Assembly: GCF_963921235.1 (NCBI RefSeq)
Contig: NC_086097.1
Coordinates: 176,082,001 to 176,146,000, forward strand
Source: Mobula hypostoma
Taxonomy: Eukaryota
Length of the DNA stretch: 64,000 bases
Direction of reading: 5' to 3'
Made by a program: the position numbers and the translations under genes. The notes under the pieces are model-generated. The model saw only the letters and a program-made list of their open reading frames with translations. It was not told where the DNA came from and made no database searches. How positions within the stretch are numbered: the first letter of the stretch is position 1; the number at the start of each line of letters is the position of its first letter. This document shows positions 13,043-53,123 of this stretch, piece after piece.

Positions 13043-14109
13043 AAAGTATGCACCAGGGATGTTTATTTAAACCAGGTCTAATGTGTTCTCTCCTCTGGTG
13101 GCAAAATTAACATGCTGGTAGAATGTAGGCAGGACTGTTTTTAAGTTAGCATGTTTGAAGTCATCAGCAACAATAAAGAAGGCGGGGGGAAGTGGTGAAA
13201 TAAAGAGCTGGGAAGTTGATTAGTGAAAGAGATAAAGGGCTGGAGAAGGGGGAATCTGATGGGAGAGGACAGAAGGCCATGGAAGAAACCATCGGGGTGT
13301 GTGGTTTGTTGTCACTGATTATTTCCTACATCACCATGGGGAGGAGGACGTGTGGGATGTATACAGCCACAATCACAATAACAGTTTTCCCTCGGTAAAT
13401 AGAAGGGCCTATACCTCACCGTTACAAACTTTACCAGAGGCAAACAGTGGGTCTTTCTCCCAGATTTCCAAGATGTATTGGCTGTAATTGGGGTGGTGTG
13501 GGCCTGAACAAACAAATAAGTGAAACAGATGCCATTGAATGGATGAGATATCCACAGAGGAAGTTTGATTTTCCAATCATGCTCGGCCCAGCTCCTCACC
13601 GACCCCCAGCTTAGCTCACCTGCAGCTGAAATCCTCACCCACCTCTTCATGAAACTCCCTCTAATCATCCTTACCATCCGAGTTATGCTCCCATCTCGCT
13701 GTTACAATCAAGCAGTGAGTTCTCAACCACCAGGTTCAGGAAGAGCCACTTCCCTTCAGGGACTCAGTTCACCAGGCTCACCTTAAACTTCTTGATGTCT
13801 GGGTAAAGCAGACAGAATAACTAAAGACCCCACCAATCCTGGACATTCTCTCCTCCCCCTCCCACTGGGCAGATGATACAAAGGCTTAAGAGCACATACC
13901 ACCAGGCTCAAGGACAGAATCTATCTCACTTCTATAAGACCATTGAAGGATCCCCATATACGATAAGATGGTCTCCAGATCTTGCAATCTACCTTGTCTG
14001 ACCTTGTATTTTATTGTTTGCCTTCCCTGCACTTTCTGTGACTGTAACACTTCATTCTGCGTTCTTTTATGTTTTCCATTGTACTATTTCAATACACTGA
14101 TGTGATGAA

Positions 14110-14251
14110 GGGGTGTATGGGGTGTATTGGTCCTGACTAAGTATCAGGAAATGCCAATAGCGATTATATAGCTTCTCCCACCCAAGACAACTCCGCCTTC
14201 ATGTAGGACTTAGGTCCGGGTGCACCCTGTCTCGCTGAAGGAGCTCTGTCT
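14110..14251 (+). ncRNA. HDV-like self-cleaving ribozyme (minimal P4, CpG-decayed)
   Basis: Manual fold: P1 GGGGTGT/GCACCCT (14222-28, G1.U wobble); P2 CTCC/GGAG plus AGACA/TGTCT; P3 GCC/GGT; L3 TTCATGTA plus hairpin; J4/2 TGAA. Confidence 0.6.
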
Positions 14252-15747
14252 ATGGCGAATGTTTGGCGCCAGAAAAATAACCAGACCGATGGTGGTGGTG
14301 TCACCTAAAATCACCGAAGTCTCCGGCAGCAGGGAGATGGATTCCAAGCTTTGGTGGAGGATTGTCTTTGTTCAACAACAGCAAAGGTTGGGCGACGTCT
14401 AGTGTATGAATCGCAATTGGGAACACCAATAGAGGTCAAATGCTGTAGTTAGATGAGCACTGCGGCAACAGAAGGCAACGGCAAACCACTGTTGAACTTT
14501 CTGCCTAGTCAATCATGGAAAGAAACAAAAGAAGGAAACCAGACAACGGCGTGAATGGAGTTGAGTCTAATCAACAGAACAACACCTCGCTCGGTAGGGG
14601 TAGTCATGTGCTGCAGGTGACACCAGACCATCATCCAGAGACTGTAAGCAATAGGGAAAGGCTAAGGGTAGCAACATGGAACATCCGTACACTTCACCAG
14701 AAAGGAAAGTTGGACAACACATTAAATGAAATGAAAAGGTTGGAAGTTGATATCTTAGGCCTGTCAGAAATTAGAAATTAGATGGACCGACAGTGGCAAA
14801 TTCACTAAGAATAGTTCTCTGATAGTTCTCTGATAATGTATTCTACAGCGTGTGTATGGAGTTGGAATTATTTTAGTTAAATTAAGGGATAACCCTTTTA
14901 ACATTAGCATAATCCAAGCCTACGCACCAACAAATAATGCAGATGAAGAGGATATCAATAAGTTTTGAAGATCTCGACAGTGCTTATGAGCAATGTAAAT
15001 CTCATGATATAAAACTGGTCATGGGAGATTTTAACACCAAAGTTGGACAGGAAAGGGCCCTTTGGATTAGGAAAGAAAAATGAAAATGGAGAAGGGTTTA
15101 CTGATTGGTGTGTCAGAAACAACCAAGTGACCACCAATACTTGATATAAAAACTATCCATGTAGATTATGTACTTGGATTAGCCCTGGAGATAGAACAAG
15201 GAATCAAATAGATTTCATTACCATCAATGAACACTTTAGAAATAATATCACAAATTCTAAAGCTACCCAGGAGCAGTCTGTGGTTCAGATCATCATCCAG
15301 TAACAGCTACTATTAAAACAAAATTAAAGAAACTGAAACGTGGAAAAAAGAGAAAGTATATGTTGGGAGAACTTAAAAAAGATAGCATACTTAAGCAACA
15401 ATTCAGGACAGCTGTAGAAGAACATTTCAACAAAAACATAACAACACCTATTTGGGACAGATTTAAGTATGCTATACAGCGATCAGCAGAGGAGATAATC
15501 CCAGTACAAGAAATCCAACACACCAACAAGGGGTGGGTAACCCAAGAACTTCTAGATCTGATGGAACAAAGAAGCTTAGTGAAGAATAATGAAGTGCAAT
15601 ACAGAGAGCTAGACAGACAGACCAGACAATTATACAATATTGCAAAGGAAGAATGGCTGAATCAAAAATGCAATGAAGTAGAAGGCCATATTAACAACAG
15701 CAAAGAAATGCACAAGAAAATCAAGGAAATTACTGGAATTAAGAAAC
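14110..15747 (+). mobile_element. RTE-clade LINE 5' portion (5' UTR, APE endonuclease, linker); RT and 3' end absent
   Basis: GAAGGCAACGGCAAACCACT 5' UTR motif; RVATWNIRTL..DILGLSE, IIQAYAPT, MGDFNTKVG, NQIDFI, GSDH APE motifs with stops and frameshifts. Confidence 0.9.
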
Positions 15748-16262
15748 CGTCTATCCACGGCCTCCTCTACTGTAAAGATGAAGCCACACTTAGGTTGGAG
15801 GAACAACACCTTATATTCCGTCTGGGTAGCCTCTGTCCTGATGGCATGAACATCGACTTCTCTAACTTCCGCTAATGCCCCACCTCCCCTTTGTACCCCA
15901 TCCGTTATTTATTTATATACACATATTCTTTCTCTCCTTTTTCTCCCTTTGTCCCTCTGACTATAGCCCTTGCCCATCCTTTGGGTCCCCCCCCCATCTT
16001 TCTCCCTGGACCTCCTGTCCCATGATCCTCTCATATCCCTTTTGCCAATCAACTGGTCCAGCTCTTGGCTCCATCCCTCCCCCTCCTGTCTTCTCCTATC
16101 GTTTTGGATCTCCCCTCCCCCTCCCACTTCCAAATCTCTTTACTAGCTCTTCCTTCAGTTAGTCCTGACAAAGGGTCTCGGCCCGAAACGTCGACTGTAC
16201 CTCTTCCTAGAGATACTGCCTGGCCTGCTGCGTAAACCAGCAACTTTGATGTGTGTTGTTTC
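15748..16262 (+). mobile_element. Penelope-like element 3' end / pseudo-LTR
   Basis: SIHGLLYCKDEATLRLEEQHLIFRLGSL..NIDFSNFR*; near-identical to 34360-34905 and 39801-40315. Confidence 0.9.
16161..16196 (+). ncRNA. Minimal type-I hammerhead ribozyme (core G->A variant)
   Basis: AGTC-CTGACAA-AGGGTCTCGGCCC-GAAA-CG-TC-GACT; differs from the CUGANGA core at one base. Confidence 0.7.
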
Positions 16263-18421
16263 ATATGGATGGCATACAAGTTTTTTTTCTGTGCCTCAGT
16301 ACATATGAAAATTTTAATCAATTCGTCAATTTACCATTTTACTAGTTTAACAATTTTTAAGTCAACTTACACAACCCCACTTCTACCTCAGGAACGGAAT
16401 ATTACAGATCACCTTTTGTGCTACCATGGACTTGTCTCTGCTTGTGTCTTTTATTTGTACTCTACAAACATGACTGCTTTTTTTTCAGTCCTTTTTTTTC
16501 CTCTCCCTCTTCACTCCCTCTTCAATGTCTTTTAAAAAATCAGTGTAATTGATTTTCTGTGTGTTGTCTGCACCGTGATGCAGCTGCAAGCGAGATTTTC
16601 ATTATACCTGTACAACACTGTGCTTGTGCACATGACAGAAGCTAGACTTGCCTTGTTCTCTCCAGATTCACTCTTCAGTTCCCTCTGAAGACCTCCCTCC
16701 TTCCATCCTCCACAAAATTTTGATCACCTAGGACTTGGCTCTTACCTGCTTAACTATCACAATGTCCTATTTGCTCATCAGCCTTGTGAACGTTAACTTT
16801 CACCATCACTGCTTCAGCAACATTGCCTCTTCTTTCCACTTGGGTTTGGTGCACGTCAAGCCTTTGTTTATCGATTACACTTTCACATTCAACACAATCA
16901 TCCTCTCAGTAATACCCAACAAGCTTCAAAGCCTGGGCCTCTGCGCCTCCCCCGGCAACTGGATCCTTGATATCCTTATTGGGAGACTACAGTCAGTGCA
17001 GATTGGTAGTAACATTACCAAAACGGAACCATAGGTGCAATAACAATATTTAAAAGATGCTTAGACAAGTATATTGTTAGGAGAGGTTCAGAGGGATATA
17101 GACCAAATGCAGGCAGATGGGATGAGCTCAGATGGATATTTGGTCAGTTTAGACCAGTTGGGCCAAAGGTCCTGTTTCCATGCTGAATTACTCTGTGAAT
17201 TTAATCCAAACATAGGAAGGTCATATCCAGTATAACCTTTTTAAAACAACAGCTGAAATGTTTTGCATTCAGTTCTGTTCACTGCTTTATGGAAATGATA
17301 TGGAGGCATTGGAGATTTTGCAGAAAAGATTTATGAGAGTCATCATTGATAAGAGGGACTAGGAGAGATTCGAGTGGTTGGGGATGGTTAGAGAAGAGGG
17401 CAGACTTGATGGAAGTAAATTAAATGATGAAAGGTCTGGACAGAGTTAAGAGTGGAGTGGAAGGATTTTCACATTGCTGGTGTGTATAATAAAGGGGAAG
17501 GGGAATAAAAGTGACACAAAGATATTTTCCTTCACACTTCATATTTCATCTAGGTGGTAGAAACATAGAAACATAGAAAACCTACAGCACAATACAGGCC
17601 CTTTGGCCCACAAAGCTGTGCCGAACATGTCCTTACCTTAGAAGTTACCTAGGGTTACCCATAGCCCTCTATTTTTCTAAGCTCCATGTACCTATCCAGG
17701 AGCCTCTTAAAAGACCGAATCGTACCCGCCTCCACTGCAGTCACCTGCAGCCCATTCCACACACTCACACTCACTGCGTATAAAAAAATCTTACCCCGAC
17801 ATCTCCTCTGTACCTACTTCCAAGCACCTTAAAGCTGTGCCCTCTAGTGCTAGCCATTTCAGCCCTGGGAAAAAGCTTCTGACTATCCACAATATCAATG
17901 CCTCTCATCATCTTATACACCTCTATCAGATCACCTCTCATCCTCTGTCGCTCCAAGGAGAAAAAGCCAAGTTCACTCAACCTATTTCTCACAAGGCATG
18001 CTCCCTAATCCAGGCAACACCTTTGTAAATCTCCTCTGTACCCTTTCTGTGGTTTCATATCCTTCATATAGTGAGGTGACCAGAACTGAGCACAGTACTC
18101 CAAGTGGGGTCTAACCAGGGTCCTATATAGCTGCAACATTACCTCTCAGGTCCTAAACTCAACCCCACGATTGATGCATCATGATTGAGGCAGTGTCCAT
18201 TATTAAGGACCTCCAGCACCCAGGGCATATACCATTCTCTCACTGTCACCATCAGGTAGGAGGTACAGAAGTCTGAAGGCACACACTCAGCAATTCAGGA
18301 ACAGGTTCTTCCCCTCTGCCATCCGATTCTTAAATGGACATTGAAGCTCTGGACACTAACTTACTTTTTAAATACACAGTATTTCTGTTTTGCACATTAT
18401 TTAAAATCTATTCAATATATG

Positions 18422-50929: not shown

Positions 50930-51120
50930 GGGGTGTATGGGGTGTCAGGGAGGGGTAGCACCATTGGTGGGGAACATGTCGTGTCCTTTTCAAGGCGGTT
51001 AGTCCACCTTCGGTCCCCACCTGGCACTCAGCTATCACTTTGTGGCTCCTCGTAGCTGTTTGCATGTGACAGAGGCCACATCCCGGGCAACGGCTTCGAC
51101 AAGCCGGCTAAACCAGGTGA
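50930..51120 (+). ncRNA. HDV-like self-cleaving ribozyme
   Basis: P1 GGGGTGT/ACATCCC (51078-84); P2 TCACTTTGT/ACCAGGTGA; P3 GGC/GCC; L3 TCCTCG..; P1.1 CC/GG; GCAA; P4 CGGCTT/AAGCCG; J4/2 G-C(51108)-TAA. Confidence 0.8.
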
Positions 51121-51502
51121 GGGTAGCCGATGGGTCTCAAACCCTCGGTGAGATAGGGAGTTGTCTATCTCAGCATGTGAAGACAGACTCCGGCGGATTG
51201 AGCGGATGAGACCACTGGAAGGTCCAACAGTCAAGAAGGCGGTCTCTGCAAGCATTGTGGAATGTGTAGAGCAGGACAAGACACAGAAAACGTCCTGGTC
51301 ATCCACTGCACCTAGTCCCATCTCCAGCCGTCTCGACTCTGTCTTGCCACTGGATCCAGATGGGAATTGGGAAGAGAGAGTGAGGCTGACGCTGCGCAAC
51401 TCTCCCTCACTTAAATCCAAATCACGCGCTAGTCTCGACACCATCGCAATGGTGTCGAGGTCCTCATTGACATTGACGATGGATGAACATCACATCATCA
51501 TC
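50931..51502 (+). mobile_element. Non-coding non-autonomous RTE-type retroposon, full length
   Basis: Perfect 13-bp TSD ATACCAAGCCATG (50918-30, 51503-15); (CAT)n tail; 5' start shared with the RTE at 14110; inserted in a minus-strand Rex1 fragment (~50065-52460). Confidence 0.85.
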
Positions 51503-53123
51503 ATACCAAGCCATGATGCAGTCAGTGAAATCACTGCCCACTGCACTTCTATAGAAGTTTGTTAAAGTTTTAGGTGTCAAGCTGAAGTTCTGCAGTTTCT
51601 GAAGGAAGTATAGGTTCAACCATGCTTTCTTCAAAATTGCATTTATGTGCTGACTCCAGGACAGATCCTCTGAAAATGGTAACACACAGGAATTTAAAAT
51701 TACTAACCTTCTAAACTTCTGATCCTTTGATGAGGGCTGGCTCATGGATCTCCGGTTTCCCTCTCCTTCCTCTACAATCAGTTCCTTGGTCTTGCTGACA
51801 CTGAGTGAAAGGTTGTTGTTAGGACATCACCTAGTCAAATGTTCAATCTCCCTTCTGTATGCTGATTCATCACTACCTTTGATTTGGCCTAAAAAAAGTG
51901 GTGTTATCAGCAAATTTGAGTATGGTATTGGAGCTGTGCTTAGCCACGCAGTCATTGGTGTAAAGCGAGTAGAACAGGGGGCTACACACACAGCCTTGTG
52001 GTGTACCTGGGCTGATGGAGATTGTGGAGGGAATGTTGCCAATCCGAACTGACTGGAGAAGACAGGAAATCTAGGATCCAATTGCACATGGAGGTATTGA
52101 GGACAAGGTATTGGAGTTTATTGTTTAGCTTTGAGGGGATAATAGTATTGCATGCTGTGTAGTCAACAAAGAGCACCCTGATATATGCATCTCTGCTGTA
52201 CAGATGCTCCAGGATTGAGTGACGAGCCAATGAAATGGCATCTGCTCTGGATCTGTGGCTCTAGTAGGCAAACTGGAGTGAACTCAAGCTTCCTCTCAGG
52301 CAAGGGCTGTTATGTTTCATCACCACCCTCTCAAAACACTTCATCACTGTGGATGTAAGTGGAAATGGTCTATAGTCATTGAGGCAGGTCACCATGCTCT
52401 TCTTGGGCACTGGTATAATTGAAGGCAGCTTGAAGCAGGAGGGTACCACACACTGCCAAAATGAGAGGTTAAATACTATGAGGAAGTGAGAAATTAAGTA
52501 CATTGAGGTAGTAAAGAGAAACCAGAATGTAGAATACAGTACTGAATAAAACTGAGATGATATTGCATACGTCAGTACCATGCACTAGGAGTACTCAGAG
52601 GCCCTGTTTAAACTGGGGAACAAGACCACTACATCACATGTCATGGCATATGATATGAAATTTGTCTAGTGTCAAAACATAACAATCACTATAAATTACA
52701 AGGATAAATAAACAAAGCAAATAAAAACAAAGTGGTTTTCTTGGGTTCATGAACTGTGCAGAAACCTGATGACTGGGAGGAAGAAGCTGTTCCTAACTCA
52801 TTGAGTGTGGATGATCAGACTCCCTGAACCTCCTCTTTTTTATGCACAATTGATAAGGAGAACTTGACACACCTACTGTACACAAGCCCCCACATCTCTG
52901 GCTGACCCTGTAATTTCAGTCTCTGAGACTGACATCAGGGCATCCTTCAAGAAGTTAAATCCATGAAAAGTGTCCGATCCAAACAGGGTACACGCTCAAG
53001 TACTTAAGATTTTTGGAGACCAACTGGCTGAAGATTTTACAAACATATTCAATCTCTCACTCCTGTGGTCTGAGGTTCCCACCTGCTGCGGAAAGTCATC
53101 TATTCTACCAGTGCCCAAGGTGA

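Follow-up and report, generated by a model that had tools for sequence, protein, structure and literature searches.

The question raised by this locus is whether the 5′ end of a degraded RTE LINE, placed at position 14110 of the window (the whole 64,000-nt stretch of DNA that was analysed), is formed by an HDV-like self-cleaving ribozyme and, if so, which base would be catalytic and whether this copy might still cleave. That an HDV-like ribozyme can sit at an RTE 5′ end is already known, RTE examples having reportedly been described by Ruminski in 2011, and a single decayed copy is in itself ordinary. What is new here is that the register is corrected, that two of the three decay claims made in a preliminary description of this DNA are refuted, and that a link to a second LINE lineage is drawn. 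From the sequence comparisons below, the locus is quite probably an RTE LINE's 5′ head with an HDV-type fold that carries a hairpin in L3 and has no P4, likely cut the element's RNA just before G14110 and has C14235 as its predicted catalytic base.

The host element (family A) and its surroundings comprise the following features:

14110..15746, forward strand: 5′ half of an RTE-clade LINE of 3.35 kb with one ORF (family A), 87% identical to the full-length copy L091
14471..14489, forward strand: short motif common to many related LINEs in their 5′ regions; 11 of 80 metagenome relatives (the best 80 of 508) have it upstream of the ORF
14509..15746, forward strand: broken endonuclease-linker ORF, in five pieces and three frames against the L091 protein
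15749..15900 (3′ limit approximate), forward strand: start of an unrelated high-copy repeat with matches elsewhere, which replaces the 3′ half of the LINE

In L091, an AP endonuclease (PF03372/PF14529) precedes the reverse transcriptase (PF00078); the family A ORF was pieced together from fragments, no intact copy having been read. Family A copies carry (GAA)n 3′ tails and target-site duplications of 10–16 nt, and named homologs of the protein bear the label craniofacial development protein 2-like (CFDP2-like). Such CFDP2-like proteins are RTE-derived. The proposed RTE identity is thus borne out by the endonuclease and reverse transcriptase domains, the length of ~3.3 kb, the tail and the homolog labels, from which family A appears to be an RTE-clade LINE. 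Since its 3′ half is gone and its frame is broken, the window copy is defunct as a LINE, whatever the state of its ribozyme. The repeat that replaces the 3′ half has 2,747 candidates, and 39 other places match it only from 15748–51 onward. Another high-copy repeat (14060–14109) hosts the LINE and seems to resume at ~16260–16310, past the unrelated repeat, though with loose ends; no duplication was visible by eye. A variant of the 14471–14489 motif has 342 matches in the source genome. Together with 14545–14660, the 14471–14489 motif forms a set of nucleotide motifs before and in the ORF start that are kept among LINEs only ~50% identical in protein, a retention exceeding what coding alone would suggest.

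The family 5′ end was examined in 77 unique family A copies, many of which were found by their likeness to the window copy. G occupies positions 14110–14113 in 60–69 of the 77, while no base at −1 to −4 exceeds 36 of 77. Among 30 copies picked by protein instead (window copy included), 26 reach 14110–14117, of which 19 align from 14110 and 7 from 14111–17; three are truncated and one gave no match. Full-length copies number 32 among 52 long loci, and 19 of the 32 have a target-site duplication of at least 10 nt. These duplications end exactly before G1 (G14110) in 12 cases, within −1 to +2 in six more and at −6 in one, in a search that permitted ends from −6 to +6 only and covered copies chosen for intact heads. 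Position 14110 is therefore confirmed as the element's 5′ boundary, where family conservation begins and duplications abut. An extra G is absent at all 12 junctions whose duplication stops exactly before G1. So sharp a family 5′ end is the footprint expected from cleavage before G1, and an internal promoter could also leave it.

The head of the window copy is organised as follows, all on the forward strand:

14110..14116: P1 5′ strand, with G14110 as G1 and predicted cleavage just before it, placed by the conservation start and the duplications
14117..14184: long structured J1/2, from folds of J1/2 alone
14185..14197: P2 extension (14185–89), P2 5′ strand (14191–94) and P3 5′ strand (14195–97), with pairs kept in 66–75 of 77 copies
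14198..14204: conserved 7-nt part of L3, with U20, C22 and G25 intact; position 24 is 14202
14205..14218: L3 insert, composed of A, a 4-bp hairpin (14206–09/14214–17, 4-nt loop) and G, complete in 73 of 77 copies
14219..14230: P3 3′ strand (14219–21), P1 3′ strand (14222–28) and P1.1 3′ side (G14229 and U14230), the family form having T14221
14231..14239: linker of 4 nt where P4 would lie (14231–34) and 5-nt J4/2 (14235–39), from copy counts and the alignment with relative L113
14240..14251: P2 3′ strand (14240–43), 3-nt internal loop and P2 extension 3′ strand (14247–51), from the descriptor, copy counts and the L113 alignment

P1 (14110–16/14222–28) is thus a 7-bp helix with a G1·U pair, its pairs being retained in 62–69 of 77 copies; P2 is 14191–94/14240–43 plus 14185–89/14247–51, and P3 is 14195–97/14219–21. 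Within J1/2, a P1.2-like helix (~14120–25/14178–83) and an inner hairpin (14131–36/14144–49) are predicted. The first P1.1 pair, C14200-G14229 (C22-G38), is present in 74 of 77 copies and its second position is U·U in family A, with 4 nt and no P4 between the G-U of P1.1 and the catalytic-position C. All helices named in the preliminary description (P1, P2 with its extension, P3 and a one-pair P1.1) are present where it placed them, and it also saw almost no P4; what it left out is the 14-nt L3 insert at 14205–14218.

A structural descriptor with position 24 relaxed and L3 allowed up to 37 nt matched the window copy with an L3 region of 21 nt, a spacing of 6 nt between P1.1 and J4/2, and the latter at 14235–39. 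Dinucleotide shuffles of 14110–14260 were matched in 7 of 20,000 cases, one of them with G1 at the first base, and five cores were matched across both strands of the 64-kb window. The HDV-like fold is beyond chance. As its L3 region is 21 nt rather than 7–8, the predicted family A ribozyme is a variant and not a standard HDV-like member: the same descriptor limited to a 7–8-nt L3 returned no match on family A, nor on the two further families (B and C) described below. No Rfam ribozyme family matched window positions 13500–15000 or copies L003, L007, L408, L437, L444 and L455, families A, B and C all being missed. ViennaRNA gave P1 and P3 a probability near zero (z-score −0.28); as this program cannot fold pseudoknots, thermodynamic folding is uninformative here. 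The weak points of the fold are P1.1, with its one Watson–Crick pair, and the P3/P1 junction, which consists of two G·U pairs.

The same L3 build recurs in families B and C, which were folded by pattern. The descriptor misses them because their P2 is bulged next to P3. A family B copy lies in the window itself:

50930..51504, forward strand: family B short retroposon of 575 nt, sharing the first 15 nt and the L3 build of family A

In this copy, L3 spans 51047–53, followed by A51054, the hairpin (51055–73) and G51074, and the predicted catalytic C is at 51108. It has a flanking duplication and a (CAT)n tail, and shows changes in P2, P1 and the closing pair of the hairpin. Family B has 2,756 candidates in the source genome, and BLAST of A against B finds only the first 21 nt shared. 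Family C heads a LINE in 27 of 30 loci, with a protein 25% identical to that of family A; it (L435, L452–L481) comprises a second LINE lineage plus short derivatives, L435 having a C-terminal zinc-finger-like end. The first 15 nt are common to all three families, and in each of them the predicted fold has its G1 exactly at the 5′ end.

In families A, B and C (77, 30 and 31 rows) the insert sits between a fixed A and a fixed G right after U26. Its majority stems read GC, GC, AU, CG in A; GC, CG, UA, GC, UA, UG in B; and GC, CG, UA, GC, UG in C, so that three of the four stem pairs of family A differ on both sides in B and C; in one further copy (L444) the stem is closed by AU. Since B and C are kin, these represent two independent hairpin sequence forms and not three. 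Elsewhere in the fold, P3 is GCC/GGU in A and GGC/GCC in B and C; the G1 pair is G·U in A and G-C in B and C; the second P1.1 pair is C-G in B, C and L113; and P1 and P1.1 thus also change with their pairs kept. P4 is present in B and C. A role of the hairpin as a replacement for P4 was rejected because B and C have both, and a role in blocking CPEB3-like ACGU dimers is not general, B and C being without the palindrome. Two positions within the insert stand out for A-to-G changes, 14208 with 14 and 14212 with 13 of 75 copies; among the 337 non-CpG A sites (mean 1.9%) no others reach such counts. No copy has both changes, which occur on several backgrounds; one keeps its pair as G·U and the other lies in the loop. 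RNA editing was considered for these changes; similar mid-frequency variants occur at other bases elsewhere, and the copy tree is star-like.

The insert most likely projects as a side helix from the 3′ edge of L3, away from the active site. In genomic HDV, the eighth L3 nucleotide lies at that 3′ edge and points outward. Published text on genomic HDV describes such an eighth L3 nucleotide (bioRxiv 2022.09.22.508989). No paper on a helix within L3 was found in a literature search that did not take in the main RTE-ribozyme papers.

The alternative that survives best, though it is unlikely, holds that the head is a relic that does not cleave, or else serves for protection or for the start of translation, with the active site blocked by the insert and the 5′ end set by an internal promoter. 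An L3 of 7 or 8 nt in published ribozyme structures, as far as the available text gives them (bioRxiv 2022.09.22.508989), would fit a blocked site; position 24 of family C is A in 31 of 31 copies and the family has nevertheless spread; and the 15 nt common to three families are what a promoter motif might look like. These points are set against the retention, across otherwise unrelated sequences, of the catalytic-position C, G25, U20, C22-G38 and the pairing of G1, and against the fact that all three families have G1 of the fold at their 5′ end; the missing extra G at the 12 exact junctions speaks, weakly, against a template that was capped.

For the predicted ribozyme, the register of the catalytic strand was addressed with related LINEs, the best 80 of 508 metagenome loci being examined. 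Four of these 80 (L113, L133, L157 and L159) have canonical folds 305–557 nt upstream of the endonuclease match, all with G1·U, P3 ACC/GGU, a 7-nt L3 with C24-G25, and a 5-nt J4/2 of the form C-N-A-A-N (CUAAC, CGAAC, CGAAC or CCAAG). L133, L157 and L159 have one P1 mismatch each, the P4 region of L159 is only 8 nt, and two further loci gave loose descriptor matches. A stricter descriptor, in which J4/2 must end in A, matched 0 of 80 and then gave 2 chance-like matches among 80; allowing one extra base recovered the four relatives. As the descriptor matched six of the 80 on the real strand against four of 80 reverse-complement and eight of 80 reversed controls, the case for the four relatives is made by their position, their GC-rich helices and their 7-nt L3 and not by the number of matches. 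Their GGU and J4/2 length indicate that the lineage habitually has U at 14221 and a J4/2 of 5 nt. A covariance model built from 18 family A copies found L113 alone (E 0.0096), with C14235 aligned to its C, and the Rfam HDV-F-prausnitzii model puts that same C within the J4/2 of the model (E 0.03, under the gathering threshold). L113 has the same P2 and 3-nt internal loop as family A, two extension pairs being changed on both sides. C14235, which starts the J4/2 CUGAA and has the N-R-A of HDV-like ribozymes behind it, is therefore predicted as the catalytic base; on these alignments it is the likely catalytic cytosine, present in 73 of 77 copies, and the earlier placement at 14236 was off by one.

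The L3 insert is absent from all 80 of these metagenome relatives. An ACC-type core pattern gave 21 matches in the source genome against 12 in the control, mostly family A. In phage contigs, 120 pattern matches yielded one loose descriptor match, judged to be chance; a covariance-model scan of 80 of the 120 gave weak matches, selected by pattern; and no protein relatives were found. Prokaryote assemblies held seven protein relatives, of which the three with upstream DNA gave no fold.

A ribozyme in another register or fold, with either C14233 as the catalytic base or a long P4 and a J4/2 at GGCGA near 14254–59, is very improbable. The GGCGA motif does resemble the J4/2 of HDV, and another group of related LINEs keeps CG-N-UGAAG, which would align C14233; yet the downstream J4/2 lacks a P2 partner adjoining P3, the heads of the CG-N-UGAAG group fail the HDV descriptor, and the descriptor returns C14235 only, which the L113 alignment also favours.

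The preliminary description had read three departures from the HDV-like consensus, at 14202, 14221 and 14236, as CpG-to-TpG changes, with 14236 as the decayed catalytic base. Over 12 CpG sites of 14110–14480, the 77 copies hold CG 541, TG 153 and CA 162 times, and true CpG sites retain CG in 35–54 of 77 copies with both TG and CA. Position 14202–03 behaves like the 11 other sites (CG 37, TG 16, CA 20), the family base being C in 59 of 77 copies, and decay is upheld there. At the other two, T is the family state: 14221–22 is TG in 69, CG in 1 and CA in 0 copies, and 14236–37 is TG in 74, CG in 0 and CA in 0. CpG decay was accordingly rejected for both. As many of the 77 copies were picked by likeness to the window copy, a genome-wide pattern left open at the disputed positions was also used and counted by hand; among the 100 matches listed, T14236 was found in 99, C14235 in 98 and T14221 in 94, with C at 14236 in one copy and at 14221 in one. 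Contigs of four other organisms hold family A, with mostly C at 14202 and no difference listed at 14221, 14235 or 14236. T14236 is indeed kept, but an alternative candidate for the catalytic C stands beside it at 14235. The version in which the family has C at all three positions, 14236 is catalytic and CpG decay killed the copy is thus hardly credible: true decay at 14202, a 4-nt J4/2 starting at 14236 that fits the geometry and the one listed copy with C at each site stand in its favour, against CG in 1 and 0 copies and CA in none at 14221 and 14236, the four relatives with U and a 5-nt J4/2, and the four other organisms without such a difference.

In the family form the core is intact, and 30 of 77 copies keep all eight core bases checked. 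Over 14110–14260, the window copy differs from the family majority only at 14125, 14126, 14128, 14141, 14202 and 14259. It keeps G1, U20, C22, G25, G38 and the catalytic-position C, but C24 is lost to CpG decay (U at 14202). The claim that it died through a decayed catalytic C does not hold, as C14235 is intact and T14236 ancestral. C24 is fixed in the four canonical relatives, and was also fixed in ribozyme design work (PMC6326823, in the part available), and C-to-A and G-to-A changes in L3 go with inactivity of an R2 ribozyme in the available text of PMC3774820; family C, however, has A24 in 31 of 31 copies, and nothing on the effect of C24U was found in the literature searched. Judged from these bases, the ribozyme of the window copy is probably slowed and not certainly dead, and the chances of residual cleavage appear about even. 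The descriptor starts in this copy at 14110 and at 14119, giving a second possible P1 5′ strand (14119–25) with cleavage before G14119. The private changes at 14125, 14126 and 14128 make the second 9 nt (from 14119) identical to the first 9 nt; at the corresponding place, a genuine additional 9-nt repeat is present in a family B copy (L451).

In the proposed mechanism, which draws on known HDV chemistry and on the biology of retrotransposons (PMC6765202, PMC11331408, as far as their available text goes), read-through transcription would yield a longer RNA containing the LINE, the head would fold as a double pseudoknot, and C14235 as general acid would cleave just before G14110, leaving a 5′-hydroxyl G1. 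The cut RNA would have a protected 5′ end, to which reverse transcription would run full length. The long J1/2 helix and extended P2 would likely make up for the absent P4. Silkmoth R2 ribozymes without P4 cleave, and one ribozyme whose J4/2 is elongated was active, according to the accessible parts of PMC3774820 and PMC10879173, respectively; in the available part of PMC6326823, J4/2 was fixed as C-R-R-A in design work, with base 76 flipped out.

Compared with known systems, again as given in the available parts of the sources, family A is closest in some features to each of several. (i) The 5′ ribozymes of R2, R4, L1Tc, baggins and RTE have the same first-base position, a nested double pseudoknot and a long J1/2, and free the RNA from a co-transcript as proposed here; the 14-nt A-hairpin-G insert in L3 is in this comparison found only in family A (PMC6765202, PMC3774820). 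(ii) CPEB3 has, like family A, an ACGU-containing 7-nt L3, U21 and C22 facing G-U in J1/4, and a P1.1 of one G-C and one U·U, but differs in its P4, short J1/2, lack of an L3 insert and intron location (bioRxiv 2022.09.22.508989, PMC9901934). (iii) The minimal ribozymes drz-Mtgn-1, theta and silkmoth R2 likewise have no P4 (PMC10879173, PMC3774820), and an elongated-J4/2 variant in that group is active, comparable to the 5-nt J4/2 of family A (PMC10879173); family A is not minimal overall, unlike these, given its 74-nt J1/2 region, extended P2 and L3 hairpin. (iv) In drz-Agam-2-1, with its P1.2 ‘pinch’, a structured J1/2 and extended P2 together speed cleavage, and family A is similar with its predicted P1.2, whereas no L3 insert is mentioned for drz-Agam-2-1 in the text available (PMC4908430).

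The distribution of the insert among LINEs bears on how it is passed on. L113 has a plain 7-nt L3 though 38% identical over the same protein as in the family C comparison, and the closest relatives of family A (L103, L104 and L105; 45–48%, among the best 80 of 508) have other heads. An exchange of 5′ heads between LINE lineages is the simplest reading of these sequences, the alternative being an old origin with losses. Other 5′ modules were also observed. A short element of ~470 nt (about 20 of 30 loci, L204–L233) has a conserved 5′ structure in common with five metagenome LINEs (L104, L108, L110, L119 and L134); it contains covarying hairpins and is possibly another processing RNA, and neither the HDV descriptor nor an Rfam family matched it in the loci scanned. 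A third conserved 5′ module with hairpins occurs on the closest protein relatives (L103 1–90, L105 1–130 and L164 ~2490–2590), with no Rfam match for L103 and L105; downstream in L103 and L164 are stretches resembling the family A head without its core.

In HDV-type ribozymes the active site is lined by L3, a loop that search descriptors fix at 7–8 nt. A natural L3 helix that is retained across families with changed pairs would widen the known fold and expose ribozymes missed by Rfam and descriptors; the source genome has over 1,400 exact matches to the head, and the presence of the insert on two distant LINE lineages makes 5′-module exchange testable. We propose, tentatively and with somewhat less than an even chance, that A-hairpin-G ribozymes are a distinct HDV-like subclass and a swappable 5′ module carried by two LINE lineages and short parasites. 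If this is true, L3 would be a new site for ribozyme engineering, for example for attaching sensors, and fixed-length searches would be blind to the subclass, so that self-cleaving RNAs may lie unrecognised by the thousand in the genomes of vertebrates.
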